From: Curvularia clavata
Taxonomy: Eukaryota
Direction: 5' to 3'
Assembly: GCA_023920165.1 (NCBI GenBank)
Contig: CP089274.1
Location: 5,766,001-5,830,000, forward strand
DNA: 64,000 nucleotides
Position numbers and translations under genes: made by a program. Below the pieces are notes generated by a model. That model was given only the letters and a program-made list of their open reading frames with translations. It was not told where the DNA came from and did not search any database. Positions 2,919 to 62,325 of this stretch are shown here, in pieces; the first letter of the stretch is position 1, and every line of letters starts with the position of its first letter.

Positions 2919-3544
2919 AATTTTCGCATCTGTTTTTTGGCATAGATTAGGCGATGAAAAGCGTTGGATCGTTCTCTGCTTTGTTATATAGAGCAACATA
3001 CGAACGAACAGCCAGTTTTTTTCACAAAATCCTCTCCTCCATATCAAATAGTGAAAACATGAACTCATGTGTGACAAACATATGCCACTGAGAAACAGTA
3101 AAATTCGAAGCCTACTGGAGATCTCACATCGAAACGTGGATTTTGCCATACTAGTAGATTACTTCTGGATTCAGGCTTTACATGTTACCCATGCTCAACG
3201 AAACCCTAAATATATGCATATACCTAGTGAATCTGGTGACAAAAAGGTCAACGTCTAGATACGACCATGGGGCGCAGAGAAGACCGCCCCAAAGGTACTA
3301 GACCAGGTCAACTGGGAAAAGAAAAAGAAAAAAAACTTCAATACAGATGTTTCTTGTCCTTCTTTACCAAAGTTGACCTCACTCAATACTCATCGTTATC
3401 GCAAGAACGCCTAACCATCCATACCATCGCTATGCAGTGTGCAACGAACGAACGAACAAAACAAATCAGCAAGAAAACAAATCAGGACCTGGGAACAATC
3501 CCATCAGTACTATTGACGTCTCTCTCCACTCTCTGTCATGCACG

Positions 3545-4830
3545 TCACAGCCTACCGACCCCAACTCGAGGTCCAAACTCGCCACGGTTGAACTTTTTCA
3601 AATCATAGCCTGCTTGCTTGAATCGCTTTGCTTCCCACCTGCGCTTAGTCTGAAACTCTTCGCTCGCAACTCGTTTCTTGGCATCTGTTTTGTCGAGGCT
3701 GTCGCTGTGAAGGGCGAGGTTTTCTTGCCAGGAGTAGGAAAAGTCTTTGAGGAGCAGAGAGTGGTTTGAGGCGGTGGTGGTAGTAGTAGTAGTGGTGGGC
3801 TTTGAGGGCTTGGCTGATACTGATGTGGCGGGAGGAGCGGGAGGAATGCTCAAGTCGAAAGAGGCTGGTTCATGAGCGTTGAATTGCGGCTTGTTGGTGA
3901 AAAAGGGATCGATATCGTCGGCGTGCGCTTTTTCTCTGGAGATAGGCGCCTTGCGCTCTGAAGCGAAGATGCGTTTGGGCGGTGTGTCGAGCTGCATGGT
4001 GTCTTCAAGCCCTTTGATCCCAAAGACATTGTTTTGCTGGCGAGCAGGCGCCTTGCTTGTCTTGACGGGTCCTGGTATCCAGTCGCTCTCCGGATCACTG
4101 TCTGCATCTTGAGTCACACCTCTACGCCGCCTGTTCTCTTCATCCTCGCATGGCTGTAACCTAGGTCCAGCTGGTGTTATTCTGACCCGCTCCTTCTCTT
4201 TTCCTTTTGAGTGTGGTTTCGCTACAGAGGTATGGGGCTCGGGCTCAGCAGTTGGCTCTTCGCCTCGCATCTGGGCTTCCCTGACGTCCTTGACGAGGCT
4301 GCTGGGTATGGCAGCATGAATCTCGGTCATGAGCTTGGCTCGCCTGCAGTATCCATTCCAATCCTCTACGGCTAGTTTGCCGGCCGCCTCGTTGAGCGCA
4401 CTGGCTGGGTTTGGCTGGATGAGGAGACATGATATCGTTACTAATACGTCGCGGAGCTTCAGTGTACTGCTCCAGTCGCGTTTCAGCGTCTCTACACAAA
4501 CGGCACCAGTGGCCTCATCTATATTCGGGTGCCATAGTCTCGTCCTGAATTGTGCCGTGGGTGGGGCCGCAGGGTATGTGGGTGGGATATCGAGGTGGAG
4601 TCGCCATACGCCGCCTGAGTAGGGTGTGCCGACCGGACCGGCGAGGAGAACGTCGAGCGATGTGAGATCCTCAGAGCCGTCGGACTCGGGTGCAAATAGA
4701 TAATTAGGTGGAAGACCAGCAGTGTGGAGGGAGCCGTGGTCAGTGGCAAGACGGCGCAGTGACTTTGAATTCTGAGTGCTGTTGTCAGTAGGTAAGCGTT
4801 GACGCGCCTTGACTATGGGGTTCTAACCAT
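3545..4830 (-). CDS. Ubiquitin-conjugating enzyme E2 S-like with long C-terminal extension
   Basis: ATG-only first exon (4830-4828), intron 4827-4772, then NSKSLRRLA...GPVGTPYSGGVW...WHPNIDEATGAVCVETLKRDW...QPNPASALNEAAG (UBC fold, catalytic Cys) continuing into ORF 3545-4330. Confidence 0.88.
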
Positions 4831-5261: not shown

Positions 5262-8200
5262 CTACAAGATATCCATGTCCTCTATCGGATCCACAAACGG
5301 AAACTGTCCACTCTCAATCGCCGCAACTCGGTCAAGTTCAGCCTGGTATTCCTTCCTCAGAGTATCCAGCGTAATAATCTGCCTCTTAAGCAGCTTCTTA
5401 CCCTGACCAATACCCCATTGTGGCGGCCCTCCAGCTCCCTCTATGCGTTGCTCCGCCAAGATATATGCATCTTCTTTGCTGACCGACGACAATGTGTTGA
5501 TGATCATGAGGTAGCATTGTGCCAACGACTCGTCAGCAGGATCGTGCACCTTTGAAGAGGTCGTCTTCAAGCGTTGCAGCCGCTCGTATAGGATGGATGC
5601 AGCTCCACGGAAGTTGTTACGAGAGATACGGAAAGAGTAGAGGATCTGATGATAAGGAGGTCCAGAGGCAATGTTGAGCGTCTTTTGACAGAGAGACGTC
5701 AGGATGCTGTCAACCGAGTCTGCCAGTCCGACAAATGGGAATTCAAGAAGTTCCGTGGTGCGTGACTGTGCTACCATAGAGGTGATAAGAGTCTGCAGGT
5801 CTGAGTGTTTTCTGCATTGGATTAGTACTTGTCGCCGTGCACGGTCGGTGTATCAACTTACAATGCTGCATCGCTATGTCTGACCATGGCTGTATATGCA
5901 TCTTGAAACCTACAAGTCTGTATGGAGGCGGTGAATAGCCGTTGAAGGAGTTCAGTCTTGAGGTCCTCGTCTTCCTGGCCAAGCAAAGACCTGAGACCGA
6001 GTTTGGCAAAGTCCGCAACGTACGAGTACGCCTTGGCTCTCTCAAATAGGCCAACGACGTGACTGTAGTAATGCGCAAGGCCTTCAGAGAAAGAGTTCCG
6101 CTCAACTTCGGATACCAGATTCGCTGTGTCTTGCTCCGATATATCAAACATAGCGCCAAGAGCTACGAGTGTTAGCATTACGTTCATATAGTTATGGAGA
6201 AGTACTCACCCAGCGTGTATGCAGGTTTCTGGAAGCACATCGATGCCGTTGCATTATCGCCTAGTGCAATGTACAGCCGACCTCTCATGTAAGACGCCCA
6301 GTAGCCTTCAATGAGAAACTTTGAAAAGTCCATGGCAAGGTGATACTCCCTTTGCGCCAGCAGTATACCCATGATGTCCTCTACAACGTTCTCGTATTCA
6401 TGCACCTCAAAGATTGATGACAGCCAACCCCGGCTCCATTTTGTAAATAGATCGGCTTTCAAATCCTTTGGTAGTGGCACCTCAAATGCACGTCCACCGT
6501 AGGCTCCCTCGAGAACCGTTTGCGTGATAGGCAGCTTCTTCCCGGTCTTGAGCGTCTCACTCAAAGACCGATTCACATTTTCAGATGCCAGACCGGTTGC
6601 GCCTTGGTAAGACCAAACCGTACCAGCTAGCCATGACACAACCATGCAGTCCTTGTACCGAAGAACCAGTTCGGCAAAGACCTCTGAAGCATCAAAGTCC
6701 TCAAGTGTTTCTCCCTCGAGCTCAATGAACATGAACAACAATAGAACAAGCAAATCTAGCAGGACATCGCGGTCGCCCTCCAGAGTCTCTTGGGAAACTC
6801 TGGTCAAGGCGCTCAGCCCGTACCGTGCAATCTGCTTCCTCGGCTGCGGACTTCCATCTTCTTCATAGCCCAGTATTTTGATGGCTCGGAGGAACGTCTC
6901 TGTGCCAAGGTCCTTGACTTCCATGCCCAGCTCTTCAACAAGGACGGTCACGTCTTCATCGGATACTTGCTGTGAAAGTTCGCTGTTGGCCTCGATCCAT
7001 TCCATACGATCCAGAATGGTGATATTCCGGCTCTGCAGTATGTCCATTTCCATGTGTCTTTGAACCTCGTGCTGGACAAAAGGTGGCAAGCGCTGCCTAA
7101 AGGATGCTGCTGCATTGAGCAGCCGCGCAACGTCTCGGGACTCCGAAGTGTCCAAGATCTTCCGAAGTGGTTTGCTCAGCGTGCGCGAACTAGAGATGAC
7201 GGCTGCATTCAGTTTAGTAATCTCAGATTCGCTGCAGATTCGTATTGTAGATAGGTAATCGCTCAGAACAAGCCATGGCCTGTCTGTTGCCCGGTCATAG
7301 ACAAGGGAGAGCGATTCCCCTCTCCGCTTGTGTAAGTCCTTCACAAGACTGTAGTATGCCTGCCATTGCACGGCTATAGCATCTTCGATATCTTCTGATT
7401 GGCGGTTTGCATTCACTGCCAGGGCAGTAATAGCCGCACATATGCGTTCCTTGAGGGATCCTCTACTAGATGATCGGCTCGACCGGGTTTGGTTAAGCCC
7501 TCGCTTGTAGATGCACAGTGATGTCTCCAGTGTTGCAATAGAGAATCTACCCGGGTAGAACAGGAAGTCAAGCCACTGCTCTGTGGAGTCAAGATTGTCT
7601 TGATCAACAACTTCATCCCGCTCGCTGGGATTCGCGGGGTGGGACTTGAGTGCCTCGACAGTCGCAGATCCGGTGTCTACGCAGACCCAGTCATTCTTCC
7701 AGGCTTGTGTTCGTGCTTCGGGCAGATCGGTGAGGTCAAACTTTAGGGAGTAAACCTTGCTACTTGGGCCTGATCTCGCACGAATCCAGATTTGTGTGCC
7801 TCTCCATCCACTCGGCCCGGGAACAATATGGAATTCTTCCAGCGTCCAGACAGTCGTTTTCATGAGTTCATCAATTGGGGGAATGAATTCTGAGCCCTCG
7901 GCAATATCGTAAAATCCCAACTCTGGGTCATCAGCATCTCTGACACCCCAGAATTTGAACTGGTGCTGCTTGGGTGAGTACGTTACAATATGGTAGTTCG
8001 CACCTCCGACTCCACCGACAACATCCACTACCTCCATGAGCATGGACTGCGAGGGCCCTATGGAATACGAGGTATGCGACTTCTCGACAGCCATGTCATC
8101 GGCACCCAAGAGGTCCATATGAGCGCCTGGCTTCCCTGATGCAATGTTCCACGCTCGTATCGAGTGATCCAAGCACACTGAAAGAATGTGCTGCTTGTCG

Positions 8201-56781: not shown

Positions 56782-58636
56782 ACGTAGTTTATAAGCGAGT
56801 CGGTCATACAAGCGAGTCGGTCACCCTACTAACTTTGCGCACCTTTACAAGCGTGTAGCTCCACCATATATAGATAGTTTTGACAGATATTAAGATAGTA
56901 GATTAATTGCTATCTAGAGTATCTTTCTTACATGTACGCGAGTTATGGCCAGTCTCTTTGCATCTACTACAGCGCGCAAGAGCCCGGCCGCTGACACCTA
57001 ATCGCTCTCCTCCCTGACGCTCTTCATAAGCAATCTGCTCATCAGCATCGCGTTGAGCGATAATATCCTCGCCAGCTCCCTTTGTGAGTACTCCTTGCTT
57101 CTGTATTCGCTTTCTTTTACGCTGTCTACGCTTTGATGCTAGCTTATTAGCCTTCTGAAGACTAGTGATCTGATCGCGCATTAGCTTAGCCGATAGCATT
57201 ATTACTTGCGCGCCTTTCTTAAGCTGATCAATTGCTGCGATAATTGAAGCTGGCGAAGAGCTCTTATGCTGTCGAACGCGATTACTTATTAGCGTTGATT
57301 GAGCTTCAAGCTCGCGTACGTTGCTCGGCGTACAGGGCTGCCAGAGAGCTTCCGCGAGAGCAGCTGGAGGAGTAGGCGTACGTAGCTGTACGTCAAGCTT
57401 TGATAGAACAGTATCTGGCTGGAGAGGAACAAGGCCTGCGCCTCGGAAAGCTGAGCAGATATTGGCTGGCGTGAAGGATCGGTCGAACGCTGCCTTAAAC
57501 GCTGGTAGAAACTCGAGCTTGGTGATGTGGTTGATATGGTTGCGTATCAGACTCTCTACCTCACGGCTATACGCGCGCTTTAATGGGGAGAAGCAGCCAA
57601 CGTCAAGAGGCTGAAGTAGGTGAGACGAGTGAGGCGGCATACAGAGCGTGTAGATATTGTTCTCCTTGCAGAGCTCTTGGAACTCAAGTGACTGGTGGCT
57701 CTCATGGCCATCAAGGATAAGTAGCCGGCGTGCTCCAACAACCTTGCCATCTGTATGCTTAATAAAGTGCTTTAGCCACTCAACTCCAAGCTCATTAGTC
57801 GTCCAGCCGTTTTTGCTCACTGCGATCGCCCAGTCGCGTGGGATTTCTGCCTCCTCGTACCAGGCAGACAGGTGATACTTGCCAGTAAAGATCAGAAATG
57901 GTGGGATAGACCAGCCAGCTGCGTTAATCGTAGCGATAAACGTCACCCACTCGCGACCACCTGGCTGGATAGCCTTTGGATGGCCTCTTCTCTCTGACGC
58001 TGTAACGACAAGCTGAGTAGTAATCTTGCCCATTAAAAAGCCAGCTTCGTCAAAGTTGTAGACGTCCTCGTCGCAGATGCCGTACTTGGCCTTCGTCTGC
58101 TCTACAAGCTCAAACCAGCTCTTGATTAAGACCGGATCTTCACATAGGGCTCTCTGCCTATCATACGCTCGATTGAAACGCGTCGTAAGACTGTCTGTAC
58201 GCTTGACAAAGTTGCGCGGCCAGTGAACGCCAACCTGGCCAGCGTCGCGCGCAGCCAGCAGCTTATCAGCCATATCTCGCACAGCAGCATAGGTAGGCGC
58301 AAATCCACGTAGATCGAGATCGATTATATGGCTAGCAATCACTTGCTCTTCTAGCTGCGATAGCTTCTTTGAATTAGGCTGGCAATCGCGCCGCGCGTGC
58401 CTCCCAGCGCGTCGGTCGATCAGTGTTGATTTCGGAACATTGAAGGCTATAGCAGCGCGTCGGGTACTCTGGATTTGATTACTATCTAGAGAAGAAAGGG
58501 CAAGCTGAATATCCCCTTCGTGAGAAGTTAATTTAGAAGCGTGGTGTGGAGACATTGCGCGTAAAGTTAAGGTGGGTGATCAAAGCTAGAGGGGTGACCG
58601 ACTCGCTTGTATGACCGACTCGCTTATAAACTACGT
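56782..58636 (-). mobile_element. Full-length Fot1/pogo-family (Tc1-mariner superfamily) DNA transposon, 1855 bp
   Basis: Perfect 45-bp TIRs 56782-56826 and 58592-58636 (ACGTAGTTTATAAGCGAGTCGGTCATACAAGCGAGTCGGTCACCC); TA on both sides (56780-81, 58637-38); single transposase ORF. Confidence 0.96.
56903..58555 (-). CDS. Fot1-type DDD transposase (HTH-psq, CENP-B HTH, DDE_1, CCHC knuckle)
   Basis: [42 protein letters not shown] catalytic Asp motifs; C-terminal [14 protein letters not shown]; 550 aa uninterrupted. Confidence 0.95.
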
Positions 58637-59475
58637 TACATCAGATTTACAGCATCTCCCGGTGCAAGAAAAGTGGTTGTAAGCAAAGAAAATGATTCTC
58701 TCCTTGGAGCCAACCAAGCACCTATTAAAAGATAAAGATCAGCGCGGGGAGCGCTAGGTCACGGGATTGATATCTTGCTAAGAGGGTAGATGCTAGTGCA
58801 TCTAGAGATGTTATGATATTCAGGACATTTGTAGATTTTATTCGCTTGGCTAGAGGACAAAGATACCAGAGCCTACAGTGATGAGGATACAACGGTGGAT
58901 ACATTCTACTATTACTCTCACGGTCAACTCCGAATAGTCTCTCTTATAAAGATTGATACTAGTTATCCTATCGTATATAGAACTGATTGTTACTTTCAGT
59001 TAACTTCTACAAATCTTTTTAACTTGGATCTCCAATAATCGCAGGGCCTACCGCGTTCAACCATCTCGCCCTAACCTGGACCAAAATCGGGTAACTATAG
59101 CCTAACCGCTTATCATAAAATAAGCGAGCTGGATTCTGGTTTCTCTAATAGATGCTTGCGCATGTTATTGTTTGGATATCTGATATTGATAAGAGACTAT
59201 ACAGCCTTCGCAGAAACTAACCAATGCTATTGTAGAATATATCAATAGGTGTTTTTGCTTGTTGAGATGTAACACCTTTGCAACAGTTACAGTGGGATGT
59301 AGTATCTAGCTTACCGCCATCGCTTGGCTACAATTGACACTATCGTATCCCTGTAGTTCCACCAGGAACAGCACAGTTAATAGGAACTCTCACTCATGTA
59401 GAGATGAAGATAATTCTCCAACACACTCAGCATTTTTACCACTACAATCTTTTTTTTCCGTCTTTATACTCCAAT

Positions 59476-61602
59476 ATGAGGCTATTCATACTCTTGGGAA
59501 TATTTCTACCTTCTTTGTTATGTACGGCCGTAATTTTAGAAGGCGTTGGGGGTCTTCAGAAGAGAGACAGCACAGCAGAGAGGGTAAGCTCAGCTAGGAT
59601 TTAGCCTGCGATGGATCGCATGATTACTGATAGCTTACTATGGTGCAGACTGTAGGTTGGCCCAAGCGATGAAGATGATAGGTCGAAGAGAGACTTTATT
59701 AATAGCGGTTCGTGATATAGCAATTTGTAACACCTAACACCTCTGCACGCTATATGAACTAGAGAGGTTGCTAACAGCTATTGGCGGTATAGCTCGTAAG
59801 TAAATCTATGCCTATACGTGATAGAAGAGTAGGAGAATTTACTGAAGACTAATGATGGTGGTGTAGAAAGTAAGTAGACGCAGTGTTTTTATAAAATGGA
59901 CTGACTAGAGACTTTATTAACAGCTATTGGTGTAGGAAGTAAGTAGAATTAATCTCTCTACACAATAGATAAACTAGAGATAACTATTACTAATAGCTTC
60001 CATCACTGTAGTGCGTAAGTGAACTTGAATCTTCCAAACAGTAAGCCAACGAGAGACTCCGCTAATGGCTGGTGGTATAGCTAGTAAGTAGGCTTAATAT
60101 CTTTAAAAGATATATGAATTAGAGACTATGCTAATATCTGTTGGTGGTAAAGCGAGTAAGTCGACTTAATATCTCTGCGCAATAGATAAACTAGAGACTG
60201 TGCTAATAACCACTGGTGGATTAGAACGTAAGGTCAACACCTCTAAAAAATAAACTAACTAGAGATTGCTAACAGCTGGTGGTGGTATAGAAAGTAAGTG
60301 GACTTAATATCTCTCTGGAATGAACTAATTAGAGGCTTTACTAATGACTACTGACGATATAGCAAGTAGGTAAAATTGAAATCTCTAAATAATAGACTAA
60401 CTAGAAACTGTATTAACTTTTGCTCGCGTAGGAAGTAGGTTGACTTAACATTTTTACATAATAAACAAACTACATAGAAATATTACTAATAGCCGCTATC
60501 ACTTTAGTGCGTAAGTAAGCTTAGAGCTTCTAAAGAGCAGACTAACTTGAAACTATACTAATGGCTGGTGGTGGTGTAGAACGTAAGTAGAGTTAATGAC
60601 TCTAAAAGATCGACAAACTAGAGACTGAGCTAATATATATTGGTGGTATAGCGAGTAGGTAGACCTAATGTCCTTACGCAATAGACTAACTAGAGACTTT
60701 ACTAATTGCTTCTGGTGATATAGCGAGTAAGTAGACTTAAGATTTCTATGTAATAGATAAACTAGAGACATTACTAATATCTACTGGTGGTATAGGTTGT
60801 AAGTAGATTTAATAACTATACATAATACATAAATAAGGTAGAGAAGTTGCTAATAAATACCGGTGGAGTAGAATGTAAGTGGACTTTATATCTACACCAT
60901 AGACATTACTAACATCTACTGGTGGTATAGATTGTAAGTAGACTCAATAACTATACGCGATAGATAAGTTAGAGATTTACTAATAATTACTGGTGGTATA
61001 GAAAGTAAGTAGATCTACGCAATAGATAAGCTGGAGATTTGCTAATAATTCCTGGTGGTATAGGCTGTAAGTAGATCCAATATCTATACTCAATAGATAA
61101 GCTAGAGGTTTACTAACAATCTCTTGTAGTAAAGTGTGTAAGTATACCTAATATCTTTAAAGCATTGATAAATAGAGATATTACTAACAATGGCTGGTTA
61201 TATAGGAAGTAAGTAAGATTAATATCTCTAAGAGATAGAATAACTATAGATTACTAACAGCTGCTGGTGATATAGCGAGTAAGTAGACTTAGTATCTCTA
61301 TACAATAAACTAAATAGAGACTGTACTAATAGCTACTGGTGGTATAGTATGTAAGTAAACTTAATACCTCTATAGAATAGATGAAATTAGATATTGGTGA
61401 TAGCTAATGGTGATATAGAAAGTAAGTGGACTTGATATCTCCATAGTAGACTAATCAGACACCTTACTAATGGCTGCTGGCGATGTAGGAAGTAAGTAAA
61501 ATTGAACTCTCTAGACAATAGACTAACTAGAGCCTGTGCTAACTGCTGGTGGTGGTATAGTGCAGCAAGATTGTTGCTGGTACAGTGTGTATGTTACTCT
61601 AA
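59476..61602 (+). CDS. Micro-exon gene: predicted 77-aa secreted Cys-containing peptide encoded by 29 exons (26 of 3 nt)
   Basis: Exon1 59476-59583 MRLFILLGIFLPSLLCTAVILEGVGGLQKRDSTAER; micro-exons start at 59649 ACT, 59721 CAATTT, 59793 CTC, 59867 AAA, 59936 GAA, 60012 TGC, 60081 CTA, 60153 CGA, 60225 AAC, 60291 AAA, 60363 CAA, 60432 GAA, 60508 TGC, 60580 AAC, 60652 CGA, 60724 CGA, 60796 GTT, 60872 AAT, 60931 ATT, 61002 AAA, 61064 GCT, 61135 TGT, 61206 GAA, 61276 CGA, 61348 TAT, 61419 AAA, 61489 GAA; last exon 61561-61602 CSKIVAGTVCMLL* (3' end uncertain). Confidence 0.8.
59584..61560 (+). repeat. Degenerate tandem array of 28 intron-like units (56-73 nt, mode 69; unit period ~72)
   Basis: Consensus ~GTAAGTAGACTTAATATCTCTA..AATAGAYAAACTAGAGAC..TRCTAAY...GGTGGTATAG-NNN; 21/28 donors GTAAGT; 25 TAG, 2 AAG, 1 CAG acceptors. 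Confidence 0.92.
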
Positions 61603-62325
61603 TTCCACTTTCTAGAAGATTCATGCATAGAATCTCTATTAACCCCATATCTAGAGAAGTAGGCAGTGCAGGGGGGATTTTTTTTGGACAGCTTAGGAGT
61701 GTTTTGTCCGTTGTATGGAGTTCCCTTTATGGGTTTAAGCTCAGGCCGGAGAAAACGGGTTTCTGTCACTACCATTCCAGAATAGAAAGTTATACATACT
61801 ATAAACATAATTCTTTCTTTCCAAAAGCCCATTGATCCCCGCGCCTGTATATAATACTGTAATTGAATACAGTGCATTCAATGGCTAGCTAATCACAATT
61901 ATCCACCCATACTCTCTATCTTCAATCTCGAACAGGATCAAAGTCAAAGTTGATCTTAATGCTAGATTTCTTAGCGGGTCAGCAGACCTTAATCCATTCT
62001 GAGGATGAAAACCTTCGACCCTTCCTGCAACTTCTTCTATGCAGAGCTATAGGGCGTGATTAACCCGGGAGATATAGAATGCTATTATCGGAGATGTACA
62101 AAGGCTACTTGAGCCTAAAAGGCGGCACATTCTAGTAATCATGGGTAAACTGTACCATGGAAGAGACCGTATTATTGGTGGGCGCGTACGATACCAGAGT
62201 TCTTCATTTGATCAACTGGAAGAGTGAAAGATCGAAGTTTGAAAGTGCAGTACTACTTAGCAATTTAAATTAAGCTACATTCTTGATCGTTAAGATCAAC
62301 CTATAGCTCTCCAACCTTGATCAAC

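Follow-up and report, generated by a model that had tools for sequence, protein, structure and literature searches.

In the fungus Curvularia clavata, a tandem array in which each exon seems to consist of a single codon raises the question of how such a peptide gene would generate variety. The original prediction viewed the frame-neutral exons as cassettes whose skipping could yield a library of peptides, with unequal crossover as a second source of variation. The window, i.e. the whole stretch of 64,000 nt that was analysed, is C1:5766001-5830000 of a genome of 32.4 Mb in 8 contigs, which carries fungal genes (Zn2Cys6, UstYa).

The gene lies on the plus strand and all of its exons are predictions from DNA. 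Exon 1 (59476..59583) comprises 108 nt or 36 codons and ends in phase 0. It is translated into a hydrophobic N-terminus resembling a signal peptide, as judged by eye, followed by a pro-region with KR. In an alignment of 12 exon 1 sequences, this N-terminus with the putative signal peptide was hydrophobic and conserved. Exon 1 is followed by a tandem array of ~72-nt units, each composed of an intron and one codon (59649..61491). Twenty-six canonical units, located between 59649 and 61491, show a branch site, an acceptor AG, exactly 3 nt and a GT donor. The first 13 of their exons start at 59649, 59793, 59867, 59936, 60012, 60081, 60153, 60225, 60291, 60363, 60432, 60508 and 60580, and the other 13 at 60652, 60724, 60796, 60872, 60931, 61002, 61064, 61135, 61206, 61276, 61348, 61419 and 61489. 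The array encodes the residues T-X-LKECLRNKQECNRRVNIKACERYKE, where X is an irregular unit, and contains no stop codon among its triplets. Upstream, a block at 59245..59335 (+) aligns in all five paralogs of the genome, with 82–83% identity to two of those on contig C7, and is probably the promoter or the 5' edge of a duplicated cassette. On the minus strand, ~0.9 kb from the gene, a 558-aa open frame encodes a DDE_1 transposase of the pogo/Fot1 type (56903..58579; Pfam PF03184, E 1e-35). Other DDE-family transposase ORFs were observed between paralogs B and E (L043:194-1267 and 3417-4724).

The five paralogs consist of a 108-nt signal/pro exon, 1, ~10, 11, 27 or 77 intron-plus-codon units and then a stop. 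Besides the window gene on C1 (paralog A, 26–27 units), these are B with 77 units (L040; C7, 2.822–2.828 Mb), C with 11 units (L041; C7, 48–49 kb), D with 10 units, an exon of one codon plus stop and one further unit (L042; C1, 5.110 Mb), and E with one unit that has a weak donor (L043; C7, 2.837 Mb). Exon 1 is homologous and 108 nt long in all five, and the upstream and downstream blocks are common to them. The pro-regions have basic motifs at their end, and the terminal exon of B, C, D and E begins with TAA straight after the final acceptor. The array makes up nearly the whole mature part, with ~81 of ~220 coding nt in the window gene and 231 of 339 nt in B. Most readings of A, B and C encode 4, 6 and 4 cysteines, respectively, which is weakly compatible with paired disulfides.

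Both C1 and C7 have telomere repeats at both ends. The distance to the contig end is 110 kb for A, 69 kb for B, 59 kb for E, 49 kb for C and 825 kb for D; three of four independent loci lie within ~110 kb of an end (p ~0.0006, with a cut-off picked post hoc). Three contig ends (L055, L056 and L058) share a non-telomeric sequence of ~50 nt outside the telomere repeats, which is probably untrimmed adapter. Homology between the paralogs begins at about the same point in all five, ~230 nt upstream of the ATG, and between B and E it reaches only ~460 nt beyond the array on the 5' side and ~360 nt on the 3' side. It appears that the gene moves as a compact cassette. The flanks of B and E share 89% (5') and 92% (3') identity, yet B carries 77 units and E one. 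Given flanks ~90% alike and B introns 86% alike, the likely history is a collapse of E or else an expansion of B. An NPHP3_N/NACHT ORF (L040:8439-9383, −) ends exactly at the start of B's shared upstream block and has no continuation downstream, a layout suggestive of cassette insertion into an NLR-like gene. Opposite the 77-unit array, the antisense strand has open frames of 453 and 324 codons (L040:2638-3996 and 5626-6597, +), probably as a by-product of the 72-nt period.

The splice signals are uniformly canonical and strong across the units. The 26 window introns have the donors GTAAGT (20), GTAGGT (4), GTAAGC (1) and GTAAGG (1) and the acceptors TAG (23), AAG (2) and CAG (1). In 20 of them the branch site is located 19 nt ahead of the exon, and their lengths are between 56 and 73 nt with the single exception of 141 nt. 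A strict branch-acceptor-NNN-donor pattern matched 21 times in the array and nowhere else in the window on either strand; 2000 shuffles averaged 0.07 matches and never exceeded 3. Genome-wide, 114 matches were obtained, and none for the reversed control. Lone strict matches on C2, C3 and C4 were rejected as arrays, and versions of the pattern for 4-nt or 6-nt exons matched only a simple repeat. Introner-like elements are near-identical introns scattered singly over unrelated genes; here, all nine genome matches to the array sit in four tandem arrays, and such an assignment was rejected. Intron retention would bring an in-frame stop in 24/26 window introns and 76/77 B introns. Among 224 triplets of seven arrays no stop was found, where 4.1 were expected (p 0.016 over all triplets; p 0.24 when collapsed to 76 distinct array-codon types), so stop avoidance is weak. 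At window position 60369, one contig of run X1 (depth 3) has a single-base difference in a donor site, either a strain variant or an error.

According to the original prediction, the array has 27 internal phase-0 exons with lengths divisible by three. Twenty-six were confirmed, while the 27th, a unit with an acceptor and no GT after 3 nt (59721..59726, +), has a non-canonical donor and is countable only as a 6-nt exon. Possible readings are a 6-nt exon whose donor is weak, a skipped unit or a break, and read-through would lead to a stop after 13 codons. Skipping is frame-neutral, as proposed, for all 26 canonical exons. A further exon lies beyond the predicted range (61561..61588, +). This penultimate exon, apparently two fused units, probably has 28 nt and hence not a multiple of three; alternatively, its final 3 nt are used alone. 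The unit at 61135 contains a competing upstream acceptor (61127..61137, +), a TAG 13 nt past the branch site, whose use would give an 8-nt exon beginning with a stop. The terminal intron and stop follow at 61589..61662 (+), with the intron end at 61654 or 61659. Whether the 28-nt exon is joined to the first acceptor, the 3-nt exon to the second, or the intron retained, translation would stop within 14 codons. The window copy, with its two irregular units, may be impaired.

Downstream of the stop, a conserved 3' block with a predicted nested hairpin (61690..61770, +) is present in all five paralogs. Across the window, L040, L041, L042, L043 and the metagenomic L051 it is 84–90% conserved, compared with ~62–70% for exon 1 in most pairs. 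The hairpin has 20 consensus pairs, three of them with two-sided change; the individual folds were not significant (z −0.5 to −1.6), and no Rfam match was found for the block. The block might represent an element of the 3' UTR or one end of a mobile cassette.

Relatives were searched for in other datasets. A metagenome scan gave ten matches, of which four were kept as arrays and six were discarded as unrelated repeats. The lone match of a viral scan was discarded as a coding tandem repeat. L052 is a member of the secreted family with at least 19 units and L051 is a decayed remnant. L050:720-4797 and L053 (− strand) contain ~60 and 25 one-codon exons leading in phase 0 into HET-type exons; the HET call is based on PF06985 (E 4e-29) for L053, and the L050 piece has no Pfam match. 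Exon 1 was compared with 1.84 billion protein representatives, which yielded seven matches, namely, six homologs and one repetitive false match (P0006), and a second search covering 90 candidates of 19–107 aa yielded seven matches. The exon 1 homologs total seven, and the six inspected (without P0008) are all read-through calls. Five of these six run into V-S or V-R after residue 36, i.e. a translated phase-0 donor. No spliced products were found among 7999 longer protein candidates and no spliced protein of the family among the database homologs; the ESM Atlas search gave no usable match.

The irregular units of the window copy, the early stop in D and the decayed remnant L051 would suit a non-adaptive minisatellite, in which slippage expands units in weakly expressed or dying subtelomeric genes and the products are mostly truncated and useless. 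The random residue order and the tolerance of one as well as 77 units point in the same direction. However, splice signals are kept in 77/77 B units, exon length is 3 at 209/214 donors, exon 1 remains open and conserved in the other datasets, and the layout recurs in phase 0 before HET exons. The codon diversity described below, about threefold that of free intron sites, is likewise unexpected for a neutral codon, and we regard this explanation as quite unlikely.

In B, site diversity at the three codon positions was 0.68, 0.71 and 0.37, against 0.19 for the free middle of the intron and 0.14 for the intron as a whole. Similar values were calculated for L050 with 0.60, 0.70 and 0.66 against 0.15 in the free intron middle. 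The window array (8 units) showed 0.61, 0.61 and 0.43 against 0.33, and this smaller codon excess is attributed to its diverged introns (67% alike). Judged by intron similarity (67% vs 86%), the window array is older than that of B. Pairs of units with the same residue had an identical codon in 335 of 340 cases in B, which points to copying and not to independent mutation, and in 20 of 25 cases in the window. Linkage among B units faded within ~15–30 nt, with a mean r2 of 0.34 (1–5 nt), 0.10 (6–15 nt), 0.03 (16–60 nt) and 0.017 (>60 nt); in L050, the decay was slight. Seventy-two of 76 B units were distinct and block duplications were not in excess. The codon was linked to a few near flank positions in B (+7 with p 0.002; +10, +11 and −6 with p 0.02–0.03, all uncorrected), and whole-flank linkage was not significant (p 0.16 and 0.33). 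C>T and G>A account for 179 of the 287 differences in B and are recurrent; recurrent transitions can mimic recombination in four-gamete counts and thereby part of the signal. Classical RIP with its CpA bias was not supported as a source of the variation in the window array, where CpA sites hold 6 of the 43 C>T/G>A changes.

The approximately threefold codon diversity over the free intron middle, together with the fading linkage in B, lends good support to diversification at the DNA level. In the DNA of B, hypervariable codons stand amid homogenised introns and the pattern indicates exchange among units. The codon excess suggests selection against homogenisation of the codon, which would imply translation; targeted mutation could also be a source of the codon diversity. 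The proposal that unequal crossover adds or removes single residues is borne out by paralogs with 1 to 77 units and by the exchange among units of the 77-unit array. The order of the residues appears random: no repeated residue runs beyond chance were present in the window or B, the helical moment did not differ from shuffles (p 0.30 for the window, 0.48 for B) and no order signal was detected in the residue strings of the arrays. As there is no helical periodicity beyond shuffles, nothing indicates that one full-length order is protected.

Dikaritin and KEP precursors are characterised by repeated cores between dibasic sites and a linked UstYa gene. A UstYa (DUF3328) gene (L041:5508-6453; PF11807, E 1e-23) lies head-to-head with paralog C, ~0.85 kb apart, and beyond it, at ~7190–7680 of L041, a small Cys-rich gene of the secreted type was observed. 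This neighbour and the basic motifs that terminate the pro-regions would agree with RiPP-like precursors, in which the array is a variable core processed by a UstYa-type oxidase and a Kex2-type protease. Nevertheless, only one of the five paralogs has a UstYa neighbour, among 17 matches in the genome, and the lack of residue-run repeats beyond chance in the window and B means that repeated cores between dibasic sites are absent. The RiPP-like reading is very improbable; as it concerns the product, it is compatible with the explanation favoured below.

The main competing explanation is that extensive skipping of one-codon exons provides many peptides per locus and that the architecture exists for the sake of this variety. 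Each of the 26 canonical exons is frame-neutral, but frame symmetry is no evidence for skipping, since only phase-0 units of 3n length can multiply in tandem without breaking the gene; tandem expansion alone predicts it. A 3-nt exon would crowd the recognition of acceptor and donor, and small skip rates compound. By calculation, complete transcripts amount to 76%, 44% and 25% for 27 exons and 46%, 10% and 2% for 77 exons at 1%, 3% and 5% skipping per exon, respectively. Transcripts are therefore probably heterogeneous to some extent, most of all in B. Exons ending in AG, at which a tandem acceptor could drop a residue without true skipping, make up 17/77 in B but 0/26 in the window. The random-looking residue order would fit a library, as would the reported precedent of the nank NLRs of Tuber (PMC4986451, PMC3689799, PMC10197012, PMC13449251), although the extent of skipping there is known second-hand from these sources. 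No weak or graded set of splice sites was found, and paralog E with its one unit is unable to make a library. Among alternative splicing events in fungi, retention accounts for 61%, alternative acceptors for 23% and skipped exons for 3% (PMC3925392), and pairing by intron definition is described for Ascomycete introns (PMC6616335).

No spliced RNA was found at the locus. Contigs from four of seven runs, the kind of which was guessed, contained no splice joints; they neither cover exon 1 nor span the array, and this blank says nothing about expression. X1 provided two unspliced pieces (59177-59459 and 60302-60539) with a depth of ~3, which may be DNA. Contigs of X2, X4 and X5 reach only the 3' block at the window locus. 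They start at the 3' block of D, with loose ends matching L042 by eye, and extend toward a converging Zn2Cys6 gene (L042:1161-3900). The hairpin may mark the end of the transcript from the Zn2Cys6 side, or just a contig break. Altogether, a library made by splicing is plausible but the less likely reading.

On balance, we favour, by a modest degree, a small fungal family of genes for secreted peptides whose mature part is spelled out in single-codon exons and whose variety arises mainly from misaligned recombination. Each intron of 56–73 nt would be removed singly through intron definition, which would make the fully included peptide the most frequent single product, accompanied by skipped, retained and early-stop forms whose share rises with exon number. 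Signal peptide and pro-region would be cleaved away. The repeated introns would serve as homology arms for misaligned recombination and thereby as the source of heritable variety: unequal crossover would add or remove residues and conversion would copy codons between positions. The peptides would most likely act extracellularly in a biotic interaction with a competitor, a host or in self/non-self recognition, which is the weakest step. Host-recognition evasion as suggested by the original prediction has no direct support, the bearing of the data being limited to secretion-like anatomy and subtelomeric position.

The schistosome MEGs, to which the locus had been likened, resemble it in a signal peptide (putative in the Curvularia gene), many small symmetric exons and products that could differ by a few residues (PMC4350168; 10.1101/2023.06.21.545858). 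MEGs are flatworm genes with exons of 3–81 nt, introns of up to 5 kb and reported alternative splicing (PMC4350168), whereas the exons of Curvularia are uniformly one codon long and the introns are short tandem repeats. Introns of 56–73 nt (one of 141 nt) and the fungal host rule out membership, and the closest precedent is Tuber nank instead. The nank genes have codon-sized microexons with reported alternative splicing (PMC4986451, PMC3689799, PMC10197012, PMC13449251). They resemble the present family in tens of 3-nt exons (predicted to be 26–27 in the window and 77 in B), in forming a paralogous family and in the proposed role in diversification. As far as these sources go, nank genes differ in encoding intracellular NLRs, while almost all of the mature portion of a short peptide of the secreted type is encoded by the Curvularia array, and in their reported alternative splicing, while the Curvularia exons are known from DNA alone. 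NACHT and ankyrin domains of the nank type were not found in the family, whose products are below 120 aa and whose exon 1 has no Pfam match.

For the high-internal-conservation (HIC) repeats of Podospora het-d/het-e, concerted evolution, hypervariable positions and new alleles from repeat combinations are described (PMC12222747). This is similar to the 86% alike introns, the threefold codon diversity and the linkage decay of B, and weaker in the window copy. There, however, the repeat is wholly coding (WD40); here the intron takes up ~69 of the 72 nt, and the variable payload is one codon. With a repeat made of an intron and one codon instead of coding WD40/ANK/TPR repeats in an NLR, membership among the HIC repeat genes was rejected. 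The family thus parallels nank in the size and number of its exons and het-d/het-e in the way it evolves, but belongs to neither. The HET arrays L050 and L053 follow the same unit logic in phase 0, with zero stop triplets and 25 to ~60 units. They differ in the unrelated intracellular host gene, and their introns are only 58–63% alike to those of the secreted family, so the data do not demonstrate common descent. A total of 27 three-nt exons, distributed over 26 genes, is reported for Coprinopsis (PMC12230235), as many as the single window gene holds. A secreted family with one-codon exons was not found in a literature search that covered few subscription journals.

Gene-finding and read-mapping programs probably overlook genes with one-codon exons. 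As every database homolog inspected is a call that reads through from exon 1, fungal genomes may conceal a class of secreted peptides. Seventy-seven consecutive 3-nt exons represent an extreme test of the order in which the spliceosome removes introns, and the family allows two routes to diversity, recombination and skipping, to be told apart. It extends a mechanism called lineage-specific to truffle NLRs (PMC13449251) to secreted peptides and to another fungal group. A further, tentative and rather unlikely reading is a movable-type diversifier, in which intron arms would let single codons be copied, reordered, added and deleted in DNA and skipping would multiply the output, as a device shared by HET, NLR and secreted-peptide genes across fungi. 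If this were true, the secreted repertoire would vary residue by residue, at the level of DNA as well as of RNA.
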